A stretch of 64,000 nt of DNA, taken from contig JAJEET010000143.1 of NCBI GenBank assembly GCA_022820835.1, positions 9,414 through 73,413 of the forward strand, written 5' to 3'. The notes under the pieces were generated by a model. It worked only from the letters and a program-made list of their open reading frames with translations. It was not told the DNA's origin and searched no databases. Within the stretch, counting starts at the first letter, position 1. Each line of letters opens with the position of its first letter. Shown piece by piece: positions 5,398 through 60,357 of this stretch. This DNA is from Candidatus Poribacteria bacterium (lineage in GTDB: Bacteria > Poribacteria > WGA-4E > WGA-3G). The translations under genes were made by a program, and so were the position numbers.

Positions 5398-6870
5398 GTG
5401 GAAGAGACAAAGGACTTAATGCAGCAACGTCGCGAGAAACTTGACGAAATTCGCCAATTCGGTGTAGAACCGTACCCACATAAGTACGAACCGACGCACA
5501 CGACATCCGCAATTCACCGAGATTTTGCCGACATTCAAGAGACATCCGATGACACACAGACCGTTCGCATCGCAGGCAGGATCATGACAAAGCGCGATCA
5601 CGGTAAGAGCAGCTTTGCACATCTTCAGGACAGCGAAGGGCAAATACAGATATATGTCCGACGCGACAAAGTCGGTGCTGATCCCTATAAAATCTATCGA
5701 CGTTTTGATAGCGGTGATATCGTCGGTGCTGAAGGCACAGTTTTCCGAACACGAACCGGAGAATTGACAATCCTTGTAGATACTGTAGAACTCCTCTCCA
5801 AATCTATTCGACCGCTCCCAGAAAAATGGCACGGTTTGCAAGATAAACAGACACGCTATAGACAACGATACGCTGACCTTATCATGAACCCTGAAGTAAA
5901 GGACGTTTTTGTTAAAAGAACTCAGATTGTCCAAGCGATTCGCGATATGCTAAACGCTCGAAATTTCATTGAAGTTGAGACCCCTGTCCTGCAACCAATC
6001 TACGGAGGTGCGAACGCCCGTCCATTCACGACGTACCATAACACTTTGGAACAGTCGCTCTATCTCCGGATCGCGAATGAACTCTATCTCAAACGCTTGA
6101 TCGTCGGCGGGTTTGATCGGGTTTATGAATTCTCGCGTGATTTCCGAAACGAAGGTATGGATAGGGACCACAACCCCGAATTTACGATGCTCGAACTCTA
6201 TCAAGCGTACGCAGACTATATTGAGATAATGGAACTTACCGAAACGCTAATCGCTGAAACTGCGAAGACCGTTCATGGTACAGCAAAGATTACCTATCAG
6301 GAGCATGAACTCGATCTCACGCCGCCGTGGGAAAGGTTGAGCATGATTGATGCCGTCCGAAAGTACAGCGGTATTGACCCCGTGCCGTTGCCAGCAGATG
6401 AGTTGTATAAGGCAGCGGTTGACGCAGGGGTCGACTTGGCGGGGGACGAAACAAAAGGAAAAATTATCGCAGAACTTTTCGACGAATTTGTGGAACCGAA
6501 ACTCATTCAACCGACTTTTATAACGGACTATCCGATTGAGGTTTCACCCTTCGCGAAAAAGAAACCCGATAACCCGGAATTCGTTGAACGTTTTGAATTC
6601 TTTATCTGTGGGATGGAGGTCGGAAACGCGTTTAGTGAGCTCAACGATCCCGTTGATCAGCGACAACGGTTTCTCGAACAGGCAAACAGTTTAGAGGCAG
6701 GCGATGATGAAGCCTTCATGGTCGATGAAGATTATCTACGTGCCTTGGAGTACGGTATGCCACCGACCGGCGGACTCGGTATCGGTATCGACCGACTGAC
6801 AATGCTGTTGACGAACCAGTATTCCATACGGGATGTCATCCTGTTTCCGCAGATGCGTCCAGAGAATTAA
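5398..6870 (+). CDS. lysS: Lysine--tRNA ligase (class II)
   Basis: N-terminal OB-fold anticodon-binding domain and class II motifs (FRNEGMDRDHNPEFTMLE, GGLGIGIDRL). GTG start preceded by GGAAGGAG. Confidence 0.9.
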   Translation: MEETKDLMQQRREKLDEIRQFGVEPYPHKYEPTHTTSAIHRDFADIQETSDDTQTVRIAGRIMTKRDHGKSSFAHLQDSEGQIQIYVRRDKVGADPYKIYRRFDSGDIVGAEGTVFRTRTGELTILVDTVELLSKSIRPLPEKWHGLQDKQTRYRQRYADLIMNPEVKDVFVKRTQIVQAIRDMLNARNFIEVETPVLQPIYGGANARPFTTYHNTLEQSLYLRIANELYLKRLIVGGFDRVYEFSRDFRNEGMDRDHNPEFTMLELYQAYADYIEIMELTETLIAETAKTVHGTAKITYQEHELDLTPPWERLSMIDAVRKYSGIDPVPLPADELYKAAVDAGVDLAGDETKGKIIAELFDEFVEPKLIQPTFITDYPIEVSPFAKKKPDNPEFVERFEFFICGMEVGNAFSELNDPVDQRQRFLEQANSLEAGDDEAFMVDEDYLRALEYGMPPTGGLGIGIDRLTMLLTNQYSIRDVILFPQMRPEN

Positions 6871-47653: not shown

Positions 47654-47682
47654 CACCGTTAAGACTTATGCGTTCCGACTTG

Positions 47683-47729
47683 AACGCATCGCTGAAAATG
47701 TTGCAAAGATTTTGGAGGATACGGTATAA
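47683..47729 (+). pseudogene. Remnant of the 3' end of an hsdM gene (encodes ...[16 protein letters not shown]), duplicated at 51331-51377
   Basis: About 50 nt nearly identical to the 3' end of hsdM (49812..51377), including the stop and the downstream TATAATG. Confidence 0.55.
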
Positions 47730-47747
47730 TGTGAGAGAGGTAGAATC

Positions 47748-48104
47748 GTGAAGGATAAAATAAAAGATGTGCAATGGGTCGGAGATTCTCGGGAACAGGT
47801 ACAGCGTTTCCCCAAACCTGCAAGAAGAACAGTAGGACAAGCACTTAATGCTGCTCAATCCGGTTTTAAACATATGGATGCCAAACCGTTACGAGGAGTG
47901 GGTCCGGGTGTATTAGAAATTATTGCCCGTTACGATACAAACACATATCGCGCTGTTTATACTGTCAAACTTGGTGAAAACATCTATGTACTTCACGCAT
48001 TTCAGAAGAAATCCACCCGCGGCATTAGTACACCCAAAAAAGAAATGGACTTGATTAAGCATCGCCTGAAAATGGCGCAAGAGATGGAGGCAAAAAATGA
48101 GTGA
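47748..48104 (+). CDS. higB: Type II toxin HigB (Gp49-like, RelE/ParE superfamily)
   Basis: IYVLHAFQKKS ... motif family. Overlaps the downstream HTH antitoxin by 8 nt. Confidence 0.7.
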   Translation: MKDKIKDVQWVGDSREQVQRFPKPARRTVGQALNAAQSGFKHMDAKPLRGVGPGVLEIIARYDTNTYRAVYTVKLGENIYVLHAFQKKSTRGISTPKKEMDLIKHRLKMAQEMEAKNE

Positions 48105-48423
48105 AGAAATCAAAATTGAGGAGAGCTCTGGCAATGTATTTCTGGACATCGGTTTCTCCAAAGTTGAGGCTGAACGTGAACAGTTAAGAGTGGATCTCGT
48201 GATTAAAATTCATCGCCTCCTCAAGGAGCTAAAACTAACCCCGGCAGAAGCAGAGACTCGCTTTGGAATTGATCCGTCTGATGTATCCCGAATACAGAAC
48301 GGAGATTTTGACTTTAATGTAGACAAACTGTTTGCGATCCTAAGCCAGTTGAACCGCAATGTTGAAATTCGTATTACACCTTCAGACGAAAAAGGTGGAC
48401 ACCTACGAGTCATTGCTTCATAG
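48097..48423 (+). CDS. higA: HigA-like antitoxin (XRE-family helix-turn-helix)
   Basis: Paired with higB. HTH region LTPAEAETRFGIDPSDVSRIQNG. Confidence 0.7.
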   Translation: MSEEIKIEESSGNVFLDIGFSKVEAEREQLRVDLVIKIHRLLKELKLTPAEAETRFGIDPSDVSRIQNGDFDFNVDKLFAILSQLNRNVEIRITPSDEKGGHLRVIAS

Positions 48424-49811: not shown

Positions 49812-51377
49812 ATGAACACCAACCTCACCGACATCGAAAATAGGCTCTGGAGTGCTGCCGATGAACTCAGAGCCAATTCACGTCTTAAGGCATCCGAATA
49901 CTCAACACCTGTCCTCGGTCTTATCTTTTTACGATACGCCGATCACAAATTTACACAGGCTGAACAAGAAATCAGCAGCGAAGCCGATCCAAACAGCCGT
50001 AGGCATCCTGACCTGAGAATGGAATGTCAAGCCCGCGGTGTACTTTATCTGACAGAGCATTCACGTTTTCAACACCTACTAAATCTGCCAGAGGGTGAAA
50101 ACATCGGACAAGCCATCACAGACGCTATGAAGGCAATAGAAGCAGAAAATTCACAAATAGAGGGCGTCCTCCCCAAAACTTACAATCGACTGGAAAAGAA
50201 TACACTCCTCGAACTCCTCCGTATCATGGAACAGATCCCTATGGACATTGAAGGAGATGCTTTTGGGAAGGTTTATGAGTACTTCCTCGGCAATTTCGCC
50301 ATGAGCGAGGGGCAACGCGGCGGTGAATTCTTCACGCCAACCTCGCTCGTCAAACTCATCGTCGAGATTATCCAACCCTTCCACGGGCGCATCCTGGATC
50401 CTGCCTGCGGATCCGGTGGAATGTTTGTCCAGAGTGCAGCGTTCATTAGCAACCACAAGAAAAATGGCACCCCCGGAGACATCAGCATTTACGGCGTGGA
50501 ACGCGTCGTTGAAACGATCAGGTTATGTAAGATGAATCTTGCCGTCCATGCGCTTGAAGGCGATATCAAACAGGCAAATAGTTACTATGAGGATCCGCAC
50601 AACTGCCTCAACAGGTTTGATTTCGTCATGGCAAATCCACCTTTTAACGTCGATCGCGTAGACAGAGAACGTATCAAAGATGATCCGCGATTCCCGTTCG
50701 GCATGCCACGCGTAGACAATGCGAATTACCTTTGGATACAACTGTTCTATAGTTCGCTCTCCGAATCTGGGCGTGCAGGTTTTGTCATGGCGAACTCTGC
50801 CGCCGATGCCCGCGCCTCCGAACTCGACATCCGTCGCCAAATTATCGAATCCGGGGCAGTTGATGTCATCGTCAGCATCGCCTCAAATTTCTTTTATACT
50901 GTTACCTTACCCTGTACGCTCTGGTTTTTCGATAAGTCCAAACGGAACAGCGATCGACACGATAAAGTCTTGTTCATTGATGCACGCCATCTCTATCAAC
51001 AAGTGAGCCGCGCACATCGGGAATTCACACCCGGACAACTCGAATTCCTTGCAAACATCGTCAGACTTTATCGCGGAGAAGCACCAGAAAATCAACACGA
51101 CAGCGCAGATTTCCTCGCCTCAAAATTCCCTGATACAGTATACATTGATGTCCCTGGACTTTGTAAGGTCGCTACGATTGCCGAGATTGAGACACAAGGT
51201 TGGAGTCTGAACCCCGGACGCTATGTCGGCGTTGACGAACAGACAACCGATGATTTCGACTTTGTTGAACGATTCACGCAGCTCAACGAGGAGTTAGCAG
51301 TACTAAATGCCAAAGCACACCAACTCGAAGAACGCATCGCCGAAAATGTTGCCAAGATTTTGGAGGATACGGTATAA
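49812..51377 (+). CDS. hsdM: Type I restriction-modification system, methyltransferase subunit HsdM
   Basis: HsdM N-terminal domain and N6-adenine MTase motifs ([15 protein letters not shown]). Confidence 0.9.
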
Positions 51378-51395
51378 TGTTGATGGAGGCAAAAA

Positions 51396-51725
51396 ATGAG
51401 TGAAGAGATTAAAATTGAGGAGAGTTCTGGGAATGTGTTTTTGGATATCGGTTTCTCTGAAGAAGAGGCGGAATATCATCAGTTAAGGGTAGACCTTGCA
51501 TTTGCAATCCACCATCTTCTTGAAGAACAAAAACTAACACCAACAAAAGCAAAAGCCCGCTTTGGACTTGATCCATCTGATGTGTCCCGACTGAAGAAAA
51601 TGGACTTTACAGATTTTACCATAGAGCAGTTGTTAGTAGTTCTGAAGCGGCTGAACCGCAAGGTTGAAATTCATATTAAGCCTTCGGACAAAACAGCCAA
51701 CTACCAGCGAGTTTTTGTTACGTAA
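51396..51725 (+). CDS. HigA-like XRE antitoxin, second copy (orphan, no adjacent higB)
   Basis: First 21 aa identical to the 48097 copy and ~65% identity overall. Preceded by the last ~20 nt of higB only. Confidence 0.65.
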   Translation: MSEEIKIEESSGNVFLDIGFSEEEAEYHQLRVDLAFAIHHLLEEQKLTPTKAKARFGLDPSDVSRLKKMDFTDFTIEQLLVVLKRLNRKVEIHIKPSDKTANYQRVFVT

Positions 51726-51726
51726 G

Positions 51727-51843
51727 CAAACGAGACCCTATACCGCCTCCCGATGCAACCCCGGAGGAAATCGGCGAATTTTGGGACACACATAACCTCA
51801 CCAATTACTGGGACGAAACCTACGAAGGAACCGCAATAGAGTA
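51727..51843 (+). other. Short reading frame or remnant encoding a BrnA-like N-terminal motif (DPIPPPDATPEEIGEFWDTHNLTNYWDETYEGTAIE*) with no start codon
   Basis: Near-identical to the N-terminus of the 52155 gene. In frame with brnT but separated from it by a TAG. Confidence 0.35.
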
Positions 51844-51883
51844 GGCTTGCTATTAGACAATAAACAAGGAACCGGAGCACAAT

Positions 51884-52165
51884 TTGAAAATTCATGAGGT
51901 TATATGGTTATCACAATTCGTTGAGAAAATAGCGAGCAAGCATAATGTGAAAACGACAGAAGTTGAAGAAGTTTTAACTAATCGTCCGTATTTTCGACGT
52001 GTCTCCAAAGGCAATAGAGTTGGTGAAGATGTATACTCAGCTATGGGACAAACAGACGCGGGACGTTATCTCCTCGTTGTTTTCATTCTAAAATCAGATC
52101 GTCGTGCATTGATTATCAGTGCCAGAGATATGAGTAGAAGGGAGCGAAGAAATTATGGAAAATAA
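51884..52165 (+). CDS. brnT: BrnT-family (DUF497) type II toxin ribonuclease
   Basis: W..F.EKIASKHNV ... G.DVYSAMGQT ... RRALIISARDMSRRERRNY matches the BrnT motif pattern. TTG start. Confidence 0.65.
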   Translation: MKIHEVIWLSQFVEKIASKHNVKTTEVEEVLTNRPYFRRVSKGNRVGEDVYSAMGQTDAGRYLLVVFILKSDRRALIISARDMSRRERRNYGK

Positions 52166-53447
52166 AAATAAAAAACGAGATCCAATGCCGCCTCCTGATG
52201 CAACACCAGAGGAAATCGGCGAATTTTGGGACACACATGACCTCGCCGATTATTGGGAGGAAACCGAGGAAGTGGAATTTCAGGTTAACCTAAAATCGGA
52301 ACAAAATCAGGTTCAATCTGACGAAACTAAGCCTAATCCACCTGCAACCACTGAAGATTTAGTTGATGCTGCTCTCAATTTTAGCACTAATCTTCTAACA
52401 ACTCTGGATCTTCCCGCTTCAGCCCTAAAAAATGTCTATAAAGCTCTTGGTCGATTGAGTTCTGCTGCACTTGAGGTGCCCGTTGCATTTCTCGAAGGAA
52501 AAGCGGAAGAGGTTCGCGCCAAATCAGAGGGACGTGTTAAAATTATAGCAAAAGGGACTGATCAAACTATTCAACAAATGGAGGTCCCGTCGGAGTATGC
52601 ACGAATAGCAGTAGACAAATACGTAGGAAAAATAATTGGAGAACAGCTCAATCTTGATAAAATCTCCGCTATTGCTGCAAATGAACTTAAGAACAGCGAA
52701 TCCAGCAATCCAACCAATCCAGACACAAGTGCACCTAATAAAGAACAATCTTCTGATTCAACAAACCAGAAGACAAATGGTAGTGAGGAACAGATAATCA
52801 ACGACGATTGGCTCAATAGCTTTGAAACAGAAGCGCGCTCAAAAAGCACAGAAGATATGCAGCTTCGTTTTGGGCGTATCTTAGCAGGTGAGATTCAAAA
52901 ACCAGGGTCGTATTCAATAAGGGCTGTAAAACTTCTCAGCGAACTTGATCAAAATATCGCGGCTTTGTTTAAAAGATTCTGTGCAGCGTGTGTAGTCGTT
53001 GAAGTTCTTGGAATTCCAAATAGCAAACAAGTATTTGATGCTAGGGTTTTGTCTTTAGGTGGTAGCCTTATATCTAATGCTCTCAGCAAACATGGATTAG
53101 GGCTTGATCAACTTAATATATTAAACGAGTACCGTCTAATTACTTCCGGGGACATTTCTCTGCATGACCACAACTTGGCCTCTCTGTATGACTACAACTT
53201 GTGCATAGAACATGAAGACAATCCAGTGCTTTTGCCATTCCAACACCAAGGAAAACACTGGATTTTATCACCTACACCAGAACGAAATAATAACTCAGAG
53301 CTTAGATTATCGGGAGTTATGCTTTCCCGGGTCGGCCGTGAATTATTCCGCATAGTTGACCAGGATCCTATGCCAGAATATACTGAAGACCTCAAGAAAC
53401 TTTTCGCAGATCAAAAACTACAAATGGTTGAAATCCGCAACCAATGA
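52155..53447 (+). CDS. Protein with a BrnA-like N-terminal antitoxin motif fused to a ~370-aa domain of unknown function (possibly Abi-like)
   Basis: N-terminus DPMPPPDATPEEIGEFWDTHDLADYWEE is the BrnA/COG3514-type motif. The remainder has no RHH or other recognised domain. Overlaps the brnT stop by 11 nt. AT-rich by eye. Confidence 0.5.
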   Translation: MENKNKKRDPMPPPDATPEEIGEFWDTHDLADYWEETEEVEFQVNLKSEQNQVQSDETKPNPPATTEDLVDAALNFSTNLLTTLDLPASALKNVYKALGRLSSAALEVPVAFLEGKAEEVRAKSEGRVKIIAKGTDQTIQQMEVPSEYARIAVDKYVGKIIGEQLNLDKISAIAANELKNSESSNPTNPDTSAPNKEQSSDSTNQKTNGSEEQIINDDWLNSFETEARSKSTEDMQLRFGRILAGEIQKPGSYSIRAVKLLSELDQNIAALFKRFCAACVVVEVLGIPNSKQVFDARVLSLGGSLISNALSKHGLGLDQLNILNEYRLITSGDISLHDHNLASLYDYNLCIEHEDNPVLLPFQHQGKHWILSPTPERNNNSELRLSGVMLSRVGRELFRIVDQDPMPEYTEDLKKLFADQKLQMVEIRNQ

Positions 53448-53454
53448 TTTTTAA

Positions 53455-54717
53455 ATGTCAGAGGATATGTTAAGAGGTCAAAGTATGGTTCAAAAATTGC
53501 CTAAAGATTGGAAAATAAAAACTCTTGGAGAGGTGACAGATATTTTTAAGGGAGGCACCCCTAAACGAAGTGTTGAGAGGTATTTTCAAGGCGATATTGC
53601 ATGGGCAATACCAACTGATATTACTAAATTGAATGATGCATTGTACATAGACGATACCGAAACACATATAACTGAAGAAGCCCTTGGTAAGAGTTCCGCA
53701 AAATTGTTGCCAGCTGGAACTGTCCTTTTGACAAGTCGAGCAACGATTGGAAAGGTAGCAATATCTCGGATTCCTATGGCAACAAATCAGGGTTTTGCCA
53801 ACTTCTTATGCAAAGAAGAAATTGATAACCTTTTTCTCGCTTATTACCTTAAAGCGAAAACGGATTTGTTAATTTCACTTGGCACTGGAACAACATTTCT
53901 AGAGGTTACAAAAGGAAGGCTCCTTGAGGTTGAAATCCCACTACCTCCTCTCGCAACCCAACGCAAAATCGCTGCTATTCTCTCCACCTACGACGACCTC
54001 ATCGAAAACAATACACGCCGCATCAAAATCCTTGAAGACATTGCACAAACCCTCTACCGAGAATGGTTCGTACACTTCCGATTCCCCGGACACGAAAACG
54101 TCCCGATGGTAGAATCACCGTTGGGCCCGATACCACAGGGATGGCAGGTTAAGAGTTTTGGCGAGGTTTCCCTTAACTTTGATCGCCAGCGTAAGCCACT
54201 ATCAGGAAGGGTTAGGGCAAAAATGCAAGGCGAATATCCATATTATGGTGCTGCTAAAGTTTTGGATCATATCAACGATTATTTATTTGATGGCCGGTAT
54301 TTATTAATTGGTGAAGATGGTAGTGTTGTTACTAAGGATGGAAAACCTGTGCTGCAGTTAGTAACTGGAAAGCTCTGGGTAAATAATCATACACATGTTG
54401 TCCAGGGAAAGTCACCAATTTCGACAAATTTCCTTTATTTGTTCATGTCCAATGTAGCCATTTTAGGTTATGTTACCGGTTCCGCACAGCCAAAGATTAA
54501 TCAACAAAACTTGAATAGAATTCCAGTCATTTCACCTCCGCAAAAATTGTTAGAAAAATTTGACCAAATGATTGAATCCAATTTTGAAAACATTACAGCG
54601 TTAAAACTGAAAAACGCCAACCTCCGCCAAACCCGAGACCTTCTCCTCCCCAAACTCATCTCCGGCGAGATTGACGTATCCGAACTTGATATTGACCCTG
54701 ATTCTAAAAGCAATTGA
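53455..54717 (+). CDS. hsdS: Type I restriction-modification system, specificity subunit HsdS
   Basis: Two target-recognition domains separated by the conserved central helix (LPPLATQRKIAAILSTYDDLIENNTRRIKILEDIAQTLYREWF) plus the C-terminal conserved repeat. Start may be the internal Met (53485). Confidence 0.85.
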   Translation: MSEDMLRGQSMVQKLPKDWKIKTLGEVTDIFKGGTPKRSVERYFQGDIAWAIPTDITKLNDALYIDDTETHITEEALGKSSAKLLPAGTVLLTSRATIGKVAISRIPMATNQGFANFLCKEEIDNLFLAYYLKAKTDLLISLGTGTTFLEVTKGRLLEVEIPLPPLATQRKIAAILSTYDDLIENNTRRIKILEDIAQTLYREWFVHFRFPGHENVPMVESPLGPIPQGWQVKSFGEVSLNFDRQRKPLSGRVRAKMQGEYPYYGAAKVLDHINDYLFDGRYLLIGEDGSVVTKDGKPVLQLVTGKLWVNNHTHVVQGKSPISTNFLYLFMSNVAILGYVTGSAQPKINQQNLNRIPVISPPQKLLEKFDQMIESNFENITALKLKNANLRQTRDLLLPKLISGEIDVSELDIDPDSKSN

Positions 54718-54878
54718 CAGATACAACGCGAGGGTGTATAATTACAACAAGGCAATTGAGAGAACACTTGCGTATTCAATATCGACTTTCAGTGCTTTGT
54801 TAGTGATACTGGAAAGGGTTTACATGAGTAAATGGAAAGACTTAACCAGGCACGATATTCAGGAAGGAGAAGAATGAA

Positions 54879-55118
54879 ATGAACGTAACCACTGAATTAA
54901 TAACGGATCAAGAAGCACTATCAAAAGACAAGCAGCTGATCCCACCTGCTGCGACAGAGCAAGCGGAGACTGAACAAAAGGCACTTATGGACTACGCCGA
55001 GGCACAACTTCGGAAGTTATCCGCGTCTCGAGGTTTAAATTGGGATAAGATGACCGATGAGGAACGCATAGATTTTGTTGATGACCTCATCCACGAAGAC
55101 CGCGAGTGCAAACGGTAA
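54879..55118 (+). CDS. Small hypothetical protein (79 aa) overlapping the start of the downstream ATPase
   Basis: ORF only; acidic and helical. No recognisable motif. Confidence 0.3.
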   Translation: MNVTTELITDQEALSKDKQLIPPAATEQAETEQKALMDYAEAQLRKLSASRGLNWDKMTDEERIDFVDDLIHEDRECKR

Positions 55119-56305
55119 AGGTAAAATCCATGTCCGAACAGAAAGCGTTTTTAGAGAAAATTCATATCAAAAACTTCCTAAGTTTACGGAACGTTACGCT
55201 TCCACTAAAACCTCTGACTGTTCTTGTTGGACCTAATGGAAGTGGTAAATCCAATACTTTAAGATCTCTACGTCTTTCTAATGGTATGTTGAATGTTGAA
55301 ACACCTCCCACAAAGACAGATTTTCTCAGAGATCGCCTTTGGGCAGGCGGAACAGACTATATCACCTGCGAACTACACGTTAAGGTGAAGGAAGAATCAG
55401 CACAATATACATTGGTGTTTAAAGCTAACGGTGACAATCTTTCTATTGATGAAGAATTATTGGTTAACACGATTAAGGTTATCTCAATTCAGAATGGAAA
55501 AGGACATGTTTGGGATGAAGATGGCAAAAAAGAAACAAAATACACATCCAATAAACTCGCTTTGAGATCTGCTGGTGATTATGGACATAAACCAGTTACG
55601 ATTGCATTGACAGAGTTTATTCGAGGATGGGAATTTTATGACTTTCAACCAGACAACATGCGAGTTAATTTTGATAGATCTTCTTCTGCTGCAAAAGATA
55701 TTCGAGAATCGCTAAAACTTAATCCTTATGGTGTGAATGTCCCAGACATACTTTGGAATTGGTACGAGGATACCCCCGAGGATTTCCGTTATGTTAGTGA
55801 GGCCCTATCCGCTTCCACGAATATCAACATAGACTACCACAAAATTGATGGAAGATCCCAGCTCTGCCTTCTTGAAGGCTACAAGGATCCACTACCTTTA
55901 ACTGGTGCCTCTGATGGAACACTGCGCCTTCTTGCATATAACACCTTACTCAACCAATCTGAATTACCGCCGCTTATTGCCATTGAAGAACCGGAGCGAA
56001 GTTTACACCCGGGAGCATTAAAAGATATTGCATACATACTTGAAAAACTAGCTGAACGAACACAAGTAATTATCACAACACATAGCTCACAACTCCTTGA
56101 CACCTTCAGTGCTGAGAAGCTATCAAATTCATTGGGTGTTTTACTCTTACGCAACCGCCCTGGGCTCGGCACGGAAGTACTCAACATTGAGGATATCCGC
56201 GATAAGCGTGAAGCACTGGCGGGTTGGATTGCTGATTTCGGAATCGGCAGTGCCGTTTTTGACAGTGGATTGCTACAAGACCTTATGGAGGAGCCGATAT
56301 GCTAA
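55106..56305 (+). CDS. ABC-type AAA ATPase (AAA_21/OLD-N-terminal-like)
   Basis: Walker A GPNGSGKSN, ABC signature and Walker B (LLAYNTL ... LIAIEEPE), H-loop TTHS. No transmembrane or DNA-binding domain recognised. Confidence 0.7.
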   Translation: MQTVKVKSMSEQKAFLEKIHIKNFLSLRNVTLPLKPLTVLVGPNGSGKSNTLRSLRLSNGMLNVETPPTKTDFLRDRLWAGGTDYITCELHVKVKEESAQYTLVFKANGDNLSIDEELLVNTIKVISIQNGKGHVWDEDGKKETKYTSNKLALRSAGDYGHKPVTIALTEFIRGWEFYDFQPDNMRVNFDRSSSAAKDIRESLKLNPYGVNVPDILWNWYEDTPEDFRYVSEALSASTNINIDYHKIDGRSQLCLLEGYKDPLPLTGASDGTLRLLAYNTLLNQSELPPLIAIEEPERSLHPGALKDIAYILEKLAERTQVIITTHSSQLLDTFSAEKLSNSLGVLLLRNRPGLGTEVLNIEDIRDKREALAGWIADFGIGSAVFDSGLLQDLMEEPIC

Positions 56306-56862
56306 GCGTGAGAGTTTGGAATTTGCAATTGGATGGGGACGCTAAAGCAGTCAAATTTTTGGAAAATGAATTTTTGAGATTCAGGCAACTTGGAGATATC
56401 GCTATCCGAACAGCCGGAAGCAGTGCGCTTCGCAAGTGTCATGGAAAAGGCACACTTTTAGAGCGAAGGCTGAGGAAAGCGATCCAGTACTACCTCAACC
56501 AAGACGACTATATTATTTTCATCGTTGACTCTGACCAACAAGGACAATCAGAATCAAAATCACTTGTTGCGCAAATCAGATGTGTCGTTGAAGATGGAGA
56601 TTTTTCTGATAAAATCTTTTTCATGCCGGATATCCAAGAATATGGGGATTCTATACCAACAGAGTGGCAGCGCATCGTTTCGCGCTTCCGTTCTGAAGTT
56701 GAAAGTGAGCGCAAACGGTTTCGGGAGGAGTGGGATAAAACCCTCGCACACTTCCATAACGCCTTTTCCGATATTCCAGAGGAGGAAGTACTACGACATT
56801 TTGAGGAAGCACTGGCAGAGGTGAGGCGTGAACGAGCCAGAGCTGCGGATATTCACAAATAA
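56299..56862 (+). CDS. Small protein with a TOPRIM-like acidic motif (YIIFIVDSDQQG), DUF4276-like partner of the ATPase
   Basis: Overlaps the ATPase stop by 7 nt. hhhhhDxD motif following a predicted beta-strand. 187 aa. Confidence 0.45.
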   Translation: MLSVRVWNLQLDGDAKAVKFLENEFLRFRQLGDIAIRTAGSSALRKCHGKGTLLERRLRKAIQYYLNQDDYIIFIVDSDQQGQSESKSLVAQIRCVVEDGDFSDKIFFMPDIQEYGDSIPTEWQRIVSRFRSEVESERKRFREEWDKTLAHFHNAFSDIPEEEVLRHFEEALAEVRRERARAADIHK

Positions 56863-56884
56863 TATTCAAAAGGAATAAATCGCA

Positions 56885-57199
56885 ATGATTCAAATTTCTG
56901 AACCGATAACACTTGAAAAACTATTACCACTGATACATAAGCTGCCCAAAGCTGAGCGCGAGCAACTGCGTGAATCCCTTGAAGTGGAATCACAGTTGGA
57001 TGCCGCTATTTTACTCTATCAGGAAGATAAAGTGTCCCTTGCCAGAGCCGCTGAGTTAGCAGGTATCCATCGTTTTGAATTTGAAGAGGCTTTGGCAGCC
57101 AGAGGTATCTTAAGAATCGTTGAGGTTGATTCAGCAGAAGCATCAAAAGCACGGATTTCCACTATCAAACGCCTTCACAAATCTAATCCGAACAAATGA
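56885..57199 (+). CDS. UPF0175-family small protein (antitoxin-like), no cognate PIN/DUF3368 partner nearby
   Basis: KVSLARAAELAGIHRFEFEEALAARGI motif. Overlaps the hsdR start. Confidence 0.45.
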   Translation: MIQISEPITLEKLLPLIHKLPKAEREQLRESLEVESQLDAAILLYQEDKVSLARAAELAGIHRFEFEEALAARGILRIVEVDSAEASKARISTIKRLHKSNPNK

Positions 57200-60100
57200 A
57201 TCCATACAGCGAAGACCAACTCATTGAACAACCCGCAATCCATCTACTTAAAGAAATCGGATGGGAAACGCTAAACTGCCACAGCGAATTTGAACAGACA
57301 GAAGAGAGTCCACTCGGTCGGCACACCAAATCCGAAGTCGTCCTAACTGCCCGACTGCAACCCGCGCTAAAACGCTTCAACCCGACTGCAACCGATGCTG
57401 CTATTGCCAAGGCAATTGAGGAACTGACCCACTCCCGCGCAGTTATGAGTCCGATTGAAGCCAATCGCGAGATTTATACCCTCCTGAAAGACGGCGTGAA
57501 GGTCACCCTCAGCGATCCAAACAGCGAAGACGAGACCGTTGAAGTCCTACGAGTGATTGATTGGGAACACCCAGAGCACAACGATTTCTTCGCCGCATCC
57601 CAATTCTGGATTACCGGCGAGATGTATACAAAACGTCCAGATATAGTCTGTTTCGTCAATGGAATTCCGTTAGTCCTGATGGAGTTTAAGCGGATTGATG
57701 TTCATCTCCACGCTGCCTATACCGACAACCTCCGAGACTACAAAGACACTATTCCACACCTGTTTTGGTATAACGCCTTTATTTTACTCTCTAACGGCAC
57801 GGAAAGTAAAGTCGGGAGTCTCACTGCTGAGTGGGAACACTTCGCTGAATGGAAACGCATTCACAGCGAAGACGAAACCCCTCAAACCGCCTTAGAGACA
57901 ATCCTGCACGCACTTTGCACACCCGAAAAATTGCTCGACATCGTTGAAAACTTTATCCTGTTTATGGAGGCACAAGGCGGATTCATCAAAATCCTTGCCA
58001 AGAACCATCAATACCTCGGTGTCAACAATACGATCGAATCCCTGAAACGGATTGAAGATAACCACGGCAAACTCGGTGTCTTTTGGCATACACAGGGCAG
58101 CGGGAAAAGCATCTCAATGCTCTTCTTGGCACAGAAAGTCCATAGAAAAGTACTTGGAAACTGGACGTTTGTTGTTGTAACCGATCGCAAGGAATTGGAT
58201 AACCAAACCTACAAAACCTTCGCCAGTACAAGCGGTGTGCTGACACAGCAGGAAGTGCATGCAGAAGATATAAAACATCTCCGCCGACTTCTCAGTGAAG
58301 ACCATCGTTATATTTTCACACTTATCCACAAGTTCCAGACGCAAGGTAGCGAGCAGCATCCCGTACTCTCAGAGCGGTCAGACATCGTCGTCATGACAGA
58401 TGAAGCACATCGGAGTCAATACGATACACTCGCTTTGAACATGCGTACCGCGCTCCCCAACGCCGCATTCATTGCATTTACGGGTACCCCGCTCATGGCT
58501 GGCGAAGAAAAAACAAAAGCGGTCTTCGGCGATTATGTGAGTGTCTATGACTTCAACCAATCTATTGTGGATCGCGCGACCGTGCCACTCTACTATGAGA
58601 ACCGCGTACCTACGCTACAACTGATAAATGAAGACTTCAATGCAGACATCGAACAGATCCTTGAAGATGCCGAACTGGATGAGGCACAAGAGACGAAGCT
58701 TGAACATGAATTCGCCAGAGAGTATCACCTCATTACACGAGATGACAGGTTAGAAACTATCGCTGAGGATATCGTCTCACACTTTATAGGTAGAGGCTAT
58801 CAGGGAAAAGCCATGGTCATCTCGATCGACAAAGCGACTGCTGTTAAAATGTTCGACAAAGTGCAGAAATATTGGAAGCGTTTAATTGAACAACTGAAAT
58901 CCGAAGCAGCCACGCGACACGGTAGTGAAAAGCACCACTTACAAGAGCGGATCCACTACATGGAAGAAACCGATATGGCGGTCGTCGTTTCCCCGGGACA
59001 AAACGAAATCGACGAACTCAGGCAAAAAGGCGTAGACATCACACAGCACCGCACCCGTATGAACACTGAGGATTTGGACACCCAATTCAAAGACCCCGAT
59101 GACCCCTTCCGAATTGTCTTTGTCTGTGCGATGTGGATTACCGGTTTCGATGTCCCTTCCTGTTCCACGATCTATCTTGATAAACCGCAGCGAAACCACA
59201 CTTTGATGCAGACCATTGCCAGAGCGAATCGCGTCTTCGGTGATAAAAATAACGGTTTAATTGTTGACTACATCGGCGTTTTCCGTGATCTCGAAAAAGC
59301 GTTGGCGATTTATGCTACGGGTGCGGATATAGAAGGAAACCAGAAACCGATCGCGGATAAGTCAGAACTGATTGAAAAACTCCGAGCGACGATCGCCGCA
59401 ACCACCGAGTTCTGCCGAAGTCTCGGTATTGACTTAGATGAAGCCCAAACGGACGAGGCATTCCAAAACATCACTCAAATCAATGATGCGATGGAACGTA
59501 TCTTGGTGAATGATGAAACCAAAAAGCGTTATCTGCAACTCGCAATGAACGTCACCAAACTATACAAAGCGATCCTGCCTGATCCGGATGCCCACGAATT
59601 TACCAGAATCTGTCAACTCATCCATATCATCGCACAGAAAATCAGAAATTTGACACCACCGGCTGACATCTCCGGTGTCATGACAGACGTTGAGACGGTG
59701 CTGGATCGGTCCATCGCACCAGAAGGCTATCGCATTGAGATACCAGCTGAGGGATACGATACGGAACAGATAGATCTAAGTCAGATTGATTTTGAGCAGT
59801 TAAGTGAGCGATTCAATACACAGCACAAACGCGTTGAATCGGAAAGACTCAGAGGCGCGATCAACAGTAAACTCACCGCAATGATCCGTCTTAACAGAAG
59901 TCGTATGGATTATCAGGAGAAATTTGAGGAGATGATCGCAGAATACAATGCGGGTACGATCGGTGTTTCGGATTATTTTCAGAGACTTTTTGATTTCGTT
60001 AATGATCTCCACGAAGAAGACCAACGCGCCAGTACTGAAGACCTCTCCGAAGAAGAACTGGCGGTGTTTGACCTTCTCACACAACGCGAGCCTCACTTAA

Positions 60101-60357
60101 CGGTTCCAGAGCGAGATGAAGTTAAAAATGCCGTGAAGGAAATGCTTGAAACACTCAAACGAGAGAAATTGGGCTTGGATTGGCGGAAACATACACAAAC
60201 ACGCGCACAAGTCAGGCTTGCTGTTGAAAATATACTCGATGATGAACTGCCCCAACCTTACACACCGGAACTATTTAATCAGAAATCCGAGGCGGTCTAT
60301 CAGCACATCTATGATTCTTACTACGGTGAGGGAAAAAGCATTTATACCGAAAATTAA
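57196..60357 (+). CDS. hsdR: Type I restriction enzyme, R subunit HsdR
   Basis: N-terminal nuclease region, DEAH-box helicase motifs (HTQGSGKS, VVMTDEAHRSQ, FTGTPL, QTIARANR) and the C-terminal helical domain. 1053 aa. Confidence 0.9.
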   Translation: MNPYSEDQLIEQPAIHLLKEIGWETLNCHSEFEQTEESPLGRHTKSEVVLTARLQPALKRFNPTATDAAIAKAIEELTHSRAVMSPIEANREIYTLLKDGVKVTLSDPNSEDETVEVLRVIDWEHPEHNDFFAASQFWITGEMYTKRPDIVCFVNGIPLVLMEFKRIDVHLHAAYTDNLRDYKDTIPHLFWYNAFILLSNGTESKVGSLTAEWEHFAEWKRIHSEDETPQTALETILHALCTPEKLLDIVENFILFMEAQGGFIKILAKNHQYLGVNNTIESLKRIEDNHGKLGVFWHTQGSGKSISMLFLAQKVHRKVLGNWTFVVVTDRKELDNQTYKTFASTSGVLTQQEVHAEDIKHLRRLLSEDHRYIFTLIHKFQTQGSEQHPVLSERSDIVVMTDEAHRSQYDTLALNMRTALPNAAFIAFTGTPLMAGEEKTKAVFGDYVSVYDFNQSIVDRATVPLYYENRVPTLQLINEDFNADIEQILEDAELDEAQETKLEHEFAREYHLITRDDRLETIAEDIVSHFIGRGYQGKAMVISIDKATAVKMFDKVQKYWKRLIEQLKSEAATRHGSEKHHLQERIHYMEETDMAVVVSPGQNEIDELRQKGVDITQHRTRMNTEDLDTQFKDPDDPFRIVFVCAMWITGFDVPSCSTIYLDKPQRNHTLMQTIARANRVFGDKNNGLIVDYIGVFRDLEKALAIYATGADIEGNQKPIADKSELIEKLRATIAATTEFCRSLGIDLDEAQTDEAFQNITQINDAMERILVNDETKKRYLQLAMNVTKLYKAILPDPDAHEFTRICQLIHIIAQKIRNLTPPADISGVMTDVETVLDRSIAPEGYRIEIPAEGYDTEQIDLSQIDFEQLSERFNTQHKRVESERLRGAINSKLTAMIRLNRSRMDYQEKFEEMIAEYNAGTIGVSDYFQRLFDFVNDLHEEDQRASTEDLSEEELAVFDLLTQREPHLTVPERDEVKNAVKEMLETLKREKLGLDWRKHTQTRAQVRLAVENILDDELPQPYTPELFNQKSEAVYQHIYDSYYGEGKSIYTEN

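Follow-up and report, generated by a model that had tools for sequence, protein, structure and literature searches.

Why should a large protein encoded inside a restriction-modification (R-M) operon begin with the N-terminal half of an antitoxin? The question is raised by a 64,000-nucleotide (nt) stretch of DNA from Candidatus Poribacteria bacterium (assembly GCA_022820835.1, contig JAJEET010000143.1, positions 9,414 to 73,413 of the forward strand; hereafter, the window), in which a brnT toxin gene (51884–52165, + strand) is followed by an overlapping open reading frame (ORF) of 430 amino acids (aa) (52155–53447, +). BrnT/BrnA is a type II toxin-antitoxin (TA) system of Brucella abortus, and the product of the downstream ORF starts like BrnA and continues as something else. 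We consider it somewhat probable, from the sequence comparisons described below, that the locus is a two-gene TA-type module in an R-M operon, in which BrnT would be restrained by a peptide of antitoxin origin joined to an abortive-infection (Abi)-type defence protein.

The brnT gene and the composition of its 430-aa partner

The 93-aa brnT product matched the Pfam family BrnT_toxin (PF04365/DUF497/COG2929) over residues 17–87 (46.5 bits, cut-off 34.5, E value 4.6e-12) and PHROG 4399, 'ribonuclease toxin' (E value 2.8e-5). The score above the Pfam cut-off confirms the canonical BrnT (DUF497) toxin named in an earlier inspection of the letters and their translations (the sequence-only reading). 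The protein is 74–92 % identical to the BrnT of seven other loci, and its gene is under purifying selection (ratio of non-synonymous to synonymous divergence, dN/dS, 0.10–0.23 at dS 0.5–1.35). A leader with a GGAG ribosome-binding site (51844–51883, +) precedes the gene and marks the left edge of the brnT cassette. At its 3′ end, brnT overlaps the 430-aa ORF by 11 nt in a toxin-first bicistronic layout; the corresponding overlap with the downstream gene is 17 nt in loci L004–L006, L030, L091–L096 and L081. Translation of brnT starts at TTG in the window (51884), in L005, L006 and L030 (position 5730 in all three) and in L031 (position 6157), and the fused gene starts at ATG, a difference that would keep translation of the toxin below that of its partner. 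A metagenome scan with a BrnT alignment returned only eight loci, among them a canonical brnT–brnA pair with the same motif (L085).

The N-terminal module of the 430-aa protein (residues 1–52, FWDTHD..DYW; 52155–52310, +) can be securely assigned, at the level of sequence, as a homologue of the N-terminal half of PF12441 (BrnA/COG5304-type) antitoxins over its first ~51 residues. In an hhalign comparison of the long-form family, to which the protein belongs, with 22 canonical PF12441 antitoxins, columns 1–51 aligned with columns 1–51 (99.6 %, E value 8.6e-25). A phmmer search with residues 1–55 against 1.84 billion representative proteins returned 536 proteins at E ≤1e-3, most of them 60–115 aa long; many are canonical antitoxins of 85–115 aa that score above the PF12441 cut-off and carry a C-terminal ribbon-helix-helix (RHH) domain (..GVSxExLxNxWLxEKL). 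These results bear out the BrnA-type motif that had been picked out by inspection, though the Pfam match itself was sub-threshold (CopG_antitoxin, PF12441; residues 19–53 against profile positions 10–45 of 79, 21.4 bits, cut-off 28). The E values obtained with hhalign and phmmer rule out a chance resemblance to BrnA. A search of PDB sequences with the N-terminal 61 aa gave no match.

The likeness to the antitoxin stops at the end of the module. As the sequence-only reading had observed, no RHH domain is present in the 430-aa protein: after VNLKS comes a disordered linker; L034 and protein P0131 keep the RHH. Of the features of the PF12441/BrnA family, the protein thus has the N-terminal segment and has neither the C-terminal RHH domain nor the stand-alone size of ~80–115 aa. 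Lacking the RHH and being too large, it does not qualify, by its predicted domain content, as a member of the BrnA antitoxin family, and without the RHH no autoregulation would be expected. The module is presumed to be the toxin-binding half of the antitoxin, with an interchangeable DNA-binding half.

The remainder of the protein had been described from the letters as holding no recognisable domain, which proved incorrect: residues 208–414 match DUF2806 (PF10987; 82.9 bits, cut-off 24.5, E value 3.9e-23), and this domain carries an invariant FGRILAGEI motif. A disordered linker spanning the old DUF2806 start region (residues 53–87; 52311–52415, +; predicted local distance difference test score (pLDDT) <50 for residues 34–79) leads into a conserved long helical hairpin (residues 88–184; 52416–52706, +; AlphaFold 2 helices at residues 88–101, 111–142 and 146–184), which the alignment shows to be common to the long and short forms of the family. 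This is followed by a low-complexity S/N/T-rich linker (residues 185–211; 52707–52787, +; pLDDT <50 for residues 182–211) and by the DUF2806 alpha/beta domain (residues 212–430 and the stop codon; 52788–53447, +). The AlphaFold model of the whole protein has a pLDDT of 69 overall and of ~90 over residues 212–430, with two short helices in the N-terminal module. The sole NCBIfam match, to the TIGR03899 equivalog, was sub-threshold (62.6 bits, cut-off 155.65). Abi_alpha (PF14337/DUF4393) returned no match in Pfam at E ≤0.1, in PADLOC or in the PHROGs, and the large domain showed no structural resemblance to a HEPN or nuclease fold.

Distribution, origin and conservation of the fusion

The near-invariant N-terminal BrnA-type module of long-form DUF2806 proteins is referred to here as the tag. 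Among the 120 closest homologues of the 430-aa protein, 64 are tagged and 56 are short forms, whose start coincides with MSDETKP or lies a few residues from it, at the point where the long-form linker begins. The locus comparison covered 77 genome loci and further contigs, with neighbourhoods of ~6 kb on each side of the DUF2806 loci. The 430-aa protein is present identically on a public contig, and the in-frame tag–DUF2806 fusion was found in L003–L006, L009, L010, L012, L030, L031, L053 and L091–L096. A mis-assembled fusion is ruled out, as the same in-frame joint occurs in more than ten independent assemblies. The search for the fusion in other genomes that the sequence-only reading had proposed recovered at least ten other Poribacteria loci, with brnT co-occurring at part of them.

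Intermediate stages can be recognised at several loci. In L034, hsdM and an interrupted brnT are followed by a full-length 93-aa brnA that retains its RHH and, after a gap of 370 nt, by a short DUF2806 gene. Truncated brnA ORFs lie ahead of short DUF2806 genes in L001, L002, L007, L041 and L043, and in L011 a brnA pseudogene has run into the 5′ untranslated region (UTR) of DUF2806. Many long forms retain '..QKKDISMSDETKP', which is the translated old 5′ UTR/leader together with the old Met. Taken with the translated leader, these stages show that the fusion came about through deletion of the RHH and of the intergenic sequence. The outcome is that the first ~51 residues of a PF12441 antitoxin are joined in frame to a resident DUF2806 gene. 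In the window gene, Gln54 has taken the place of the ancestral DUF2806 Met, and codons 12 to ~80 offer no in-frame start; hence, the DUF2806 part can be made only with the tag attached. A separate feature of L043 (~6200–6700) is a tandem ~100-nt repeat that separates the truncated brnA from the start of DUF2806 and is visible as recurring peptide strings in each of the three frames.

A second copy of the N-terminal motif, start-less and positioned just upstream of brnT, had been reported from the letters and was confirmed. This remnant (51728–51843, +) is a 38-codon fragment, KRDPIPPPDATPEEIGEFWDTHNLTNYWDETYEGTAIE*, and forms a 100-nt direct repeat with 52173–52272 at 87 % identity. Compared with the module, it shows 79 % identity over 34 aa (tblastn), with six amino-acid changes in 33 residues; its frame is open only from 51680 and offers no ATG, GTG or TTG. 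Alignment with the L004 brnT leader holds for the 40 nt ahead of brnT, from 'TAGGCTyGCT' on, and does not extend further 5′. L031 has the same duplicated arrangement, including the start-less copy. On these alignments, the copy is best read as a recombination scar: a cassette of brnT and tag would have recombined into a locus that already held a tagged DUF2806 gene (as in L009), leaving the start-less scar behind.

Remnants of this kind invite the view that the N-terminal segment, like the upstream copy, is a decaying leftover of a brnA gene that suffered deletions, translated only by virtue of its reading frame, and that brnT is an inactive relic. The truncated or stop-containing brnA remnants in L001, L002, L007, L011, L041 and L043 fit such neutral debris, as do the start-less copies in the window and L031, the former with its six changes. 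We nevertheless regard this explanation as very improbable given the substitution patterns. Nei–Gojobori estimates on 11 fused genes over the 41-codon tag gave a proportion of non-synonymous differences (pN) of 0.02–0.12 at a synonymous proportion (pS) of 0.2–0.85 and a dN/dS of ~0.03–0.15; the sites are few and the values noisy, and the estimates are consistent across pairs. The DUF2806 core has a higher dN/dS (0.13–0.42). The tag is under purifying selection, stronger than that on the DUF2806 core, and this at near-saturated synonymous divergence; brnT, at 0.10–0.23, does not look like a relic either. Protein-level constraint alongside abundant synonymous changes also rules out the idea that the tag is a translation-coupling leader only.

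Genomic position argues in the same direction. In L005, L006, L030, L095 and L096, the brnT–fusion pair stands alone between alcohol dehydrogenase and FGE-sulfatase genes, with no R-M genes, and synteny of this stand-alone pair extends across genomes with near-saturated synonymous sites. That several divergent genomes have kept it at a syntenic position away from R-M genes is not what is expected of debris and points to long retention of brnT and the tagged DUF2806 gene as a unit.

Association with brnT, proposed mechanism and competing explanations

BrnT matches were found in 8 of the 18 loci with the tag and in none of the 59 without it. An intact brnT overlaps the fused gene by 11–17 nt in the window, L004, L005, L006, L030, L031, L091, L092/93 and L095/96, so that an intact brnT lies ahead of the fusion at about ten distinct sites. 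Adjacency, co-occurrence and selection together lead us to propose that the tag binds the BrnT ribonuclease (RNase) to the DUF2806 protein and so keeps it inactive. Lacking an RHH, the pair could not autoregulate and would depend on the operon or cassette promoters. The DUF2806 part would act as an Abi protein resembling Belisama, a DUF2806 anti-phage system discussed below. Phage infection might then activate the fusion protein, destabilise it or stop its resynthesis, so that BrnT would be freed and would cleave RNA, adding to or executing growth arrest. The Abi-like antitoxin-effector fusion suggested by the sequence-only reading is therefore upheld in part: the BrnA-derived module, the conserved fusion and the DUF2806 domain support it, while neutralisation of the toxin and defence are what we infer from them.

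Several observations weigh against this proposal. Three loci are tagged and have no adjacent brnT (L009, L053 and L094), and brnT is frameshifted in L010 and truncated in L012; in all five, the tag is still conserved. (In L034, with its complete brnA, brnT is interrupted.) Furthermore, the gap between hsdM and DUF2806 is a general TA hotspot, which in related genomes has received a Gp49/HTH_37 cassette at many loci, and the adjacency of brnT could have begun by chance. No solved structure matched the BrnT protein at sequence level (phmmer and profile search of PDB sequences). For the DUF2806 domain, neither a catalytic fold nor a relative in the PDB was detected, and the 430-aa protein had no match in PADLOC 2.0 or the PHROGs.

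Retention of the tag where no intact brnT is adjacent means that it may work with a brnT encoded elsewhere in the genome or have a role independent of BrnT. In the latter case, the tag would be a regulatory or partner-docking peptide, or would sense foreign BrnT-like toxins, and the adjacent brnT would be optional. The conserved tags of L009, L053, L094 and possibly L003 favour this (L009 and L053 differ at pS 0.69 and pN 0.07), and so does the modular use of the N-terminal segment elsewhere, where it is found with RHH, MazE/AbrB or HTH_37 domains or in tandem copies. We nonetheless judge an independent role to be quite unlikely, because canonical relatives carry the module, without exception, as part of an antitoxin partnered with BrnT and because brnT was never found beside an untagged DUF2806 gene (0 of 59 loci); the neighbourhoods span only ~6 kb on each side, and a brnT may exist elsewhere in the genomes concerned.

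The module also heads proteins other than DUF2806. In L078 (3436–8337), a closely related BrnT (74–92 % identical) precedes a 1533-aa protein that starts with the same tag and has an NPHP3_N/NACHT-type nucleoside triphosphatase (NTPase) region, and in L081 (440–1391) and L082 (218–1169) such a BrnT precedes a tagged 226-aa protein with a ~170-aa domain. This domain is common to the N-terminus of the 1533-aa protein of L078; by eye, it may contain a D..QxK motif. Neither the 1533-aa protein nor the 226-aa proteins of L081 and L082 had a match in PADLOC. In other lineages, proteins P0238, P0134, P0152, P0213 and P0198 have the module joined to MazE/AbrB, to HTH_37 or to a 324-aa protein, or duplicated in tandem. 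From these combinations, the module appears to have been shuffled as a unit; its occurrence with varied domains or in tandem indicates that it behaves as an independent entity and agrees with its presumed role as the toxin-binding half.

Three further sequences resemble the module or contain it. Protein P0181 (1107 aa, with an N-terminus that is repeat-rich by eye) has eight weak stretches of module similarity at 32 % identity, which may be a compositional artefact. Fusions of the tag to HsdS (P0146 and P0156) were set aside as possibly artefactual, given a contig of 1x coverage and a fragmented hsdM. In L079, the contig of P0156, the tag is joined directly to the HsdS N-terminus after HTH_37 and there is no DUF2806 gene, which may reflect a sequencing artefact or a recent deletion.

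A tentative extension of the proposal is that the ~50-residue BrnA segment is a portable docking tag, with which Poribacteria immune proteins might hold BrnT as a trans-acting effector to be released on activation. With similar reserve, one could picture a TA interface reused as a sensor–effector adaptor, by analogy with the homotypic adaptor domains of eukaryotic nucleotide-binding leucine-rich repeat receptors (NLRs).

The range of partners also bears on whether the pair serves defence at all. A selfish TA cassette of brnT and tag might do no more than stabilise the DUF2806 gene or the R-M island through addiction, with no role against phage. Two kinds of TA cassette (Gp49/HTH_37 and brnT/brnA) pile up after hsdM, brnT has decayed repeatedly (frameshifted in L010, truncated in L012 and interrupted in L034), and an antitoxin fused to its neighbour would make that neighbour hard to lose. 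However, BrnT and tag are joined to at least three large defence-type partners (DUF2806, the NACHT-type protein and the 170-aa domain), which looks like functional recruitment, and the tag is strongly constrained even without an adjacent brnT. We therefore consider addiction alone an unlikely account.

Operon setting, known systems and implications

The placement of the module between hsdM and hsdS, as the sequence-only reading had it, was confirmed. Upstream, the operon is framed by the Type I methylase gene hsdM (49812–51377, +), which shares 78–98 % identity with the hsdM of Poribacteria loci and has a Poribacteria homologue on which the Pfam domains HsdM_N and N6_Mtase are recorded. Its 94–98 % identity to hsdM of Candidatus Poribacteria genomes, together with the identical copy of the 430-aa protein on a public contig, places the window in a Poribacteria (sponge-symbiont) genome. 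Downstream, the frame is formed by the specificity subunit gene hsdS (53455–54717, +; Pfam Methylase_S in two stretches, E value 2.8e-50), and the operon ends with the restriction subunit gene hsdR (57196–60357, +; 1053 aa), which shares 66–93 % identity with the hsdR of Poribacteria loci. With or without the tag, the DUF2806 gene is a near-constant insert between hsdM and hsdS in Poribacteria and hence a standing component of their R-M operon even without BrnT. Embedding inside R-M operons predicts defence genes, a rule known as 'guilt by embedding' (bioRxiv 10.1101/2024.01.29.577857), which the position of DUF2806 fits.

Between hsdM and the start-less copy lies an orphan HTH_37 (Xre-type) antitoxin gene (51396–51725, +; Pfam HTH_37, E value 2e-17), beside which the Gp49/HigB-like toxin partner is missing. 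A complete Gp49/HigB-like and HTH_37 TA pair is encoded at 47748–48423 and is preceded by one copy of a 51-nt repeat (47682–47732). The other copy (51330–51380, +; 96 % identical) takes in the hsdM 3′ end and directly precedes the toxin-less HTH_37 gene. Together, the repeat and the HTH_37 copies suggest that a TA cassette or the R-M operon has been duplicated or rearranged. The second repeat copy also contains a promoter-like site, TTGCCA-18-TATAAT (51349–51378; 11 of 12 consensus positions), of a kind no commoner in the region than in shuffled sequence; it is possible that this site serves the small genes downstream.

The interval between hsdS and hsdR (54879–57199, +) holds a 79-aa ORF, a gene for an ATP-binding cassette (ABC)-type ATPase (55106–56305; PADLOC HEC-01A, E value 2e-45, and also AAA_21/AAA_15), a 187-aa ORF that overlaps the ATPase gene and had no family match, and a UPF0175 gene that overlaps the start of hsdR. 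Taken together and judged by their sequence matches, these genes suggest a second candidate defence system, of HEC-01 type, within the operon. The ATPase and 187-aa pair also occurs 3′ of brnT–DUF2806 in L004, where there are no hsd genes. The region had been described as AT-rich relative to its flanks; its G+C content is indeed lower (0.42 over 51396–56862, compared with 0.471 for the window, 0.487 for hsdM and 0.471 for hsdR), but the difference is only modest.

Set beside the known BrnT/BrnA systems, in which COG2929/DUF497 toxins pair with COG5304/COG3514 RHH antitoxins (PMC2701414), the window locus shares the toxin-first, overlapping gene order and a downstream product that starts with the antitoxin segment (..EEIGEFWDTHDLADYW..). 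It differs in that the RHH DNA-binding/dimerisation domain is replaced by a linker and a ~375-aa DUF2806 protein, and in its embedding in an R-M operon.

Among known systems, the C-terminal part is to be compared with Belisama, a DUF2806 single-gene anti-phage system from the Vibrio cholerae superintegron that is toxic on overexpression and gives unrecoverable culture lysis/collapse at high multiplicity of infection (bioRxiv 10.1101/2024.07.02.601686). The C-terminal domains of both proteins belong to the same Pfam family, PF10987 (the comparison being made at family level), and both genes lie in a defence-type genomic setting. Belisama, however, is a single integron-cassette gene, whereas the window protein is longer, tagged, paired with brnT and encoded in a Type I R-M operon. 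The authors of the Belisama study report detectable homology of DUF2806 to the Abi-alpha domain (bioRxiv 10.1101/2024.07.02.601686), and Abi-alpha (DUF4393/PF14337) is an Enterococcus faecalis prophage Abi system (PMC6356687); the two are thus linked by that homology and by their Abi-type character, and differ in that the window protein gave no Abi_alpha match. Conjugative plasmids of the IncX4 type and two temperate phages also carry DUF2806 genes.

A potentially suicidal RNase module between hsd genes is reminiscent of PrrC/RloC, of the HEC/PDC candidates and of TgvAB, and R-M-embedded genes elsewhere mark back-up defences that complement the R-M complex or are guarded by it. Unlike PrrC/RloC, neither brnT nor the 430-aa gene encodes an ABC-ATPase or anticodon-nuclease domain; the RNase here is BrnT, presumably held by the fused antitoxin peptide, and the pair also occurs without R-M genes. 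CapRel-type proteins are fused TA defence proteins. Single-chain BrnT–BrnA fusions have also been described (bioRxiv 10.1101/2025.01.28.635273) and, like the window locus, show TA parts rearranged by gene fusion and used in defence contexts. In those fusions, the toxin is joined to a complete antitoxin with RHH or helix-turn-helix domain, whereas in the window the toxin is separate and only the N-terminal half of the antitoxin is fused, to an unrelated large defence protein. In open-access papers and on bioRxiv, we found no description of DUF2806, NACHT or other defence proteins to which the N-terminal half of BrnA is fused.

If the proposed reading of the locus as a TA-type module with a fused defence partner is correct, the toxin-binding half of a type II antitoxin has, in nature, parted from the DNA-binding half and become attached to defence proteins, which would link classical TA biology directly to abortive infection and to immunity of the STAND (signal transduction ATPases with numerous domains) type. 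It would also provide a handle on the mechanism of DUF2806/Belisama and on the BrnT-contacting part of PF12441/BrnA antitoxins; the natural truncation predicts that residues ~10–50 suffice for contact with BrnT. For the uncultivated sponge symbionts themselves, it would show R-M operons in the process of accumulating layered defences.

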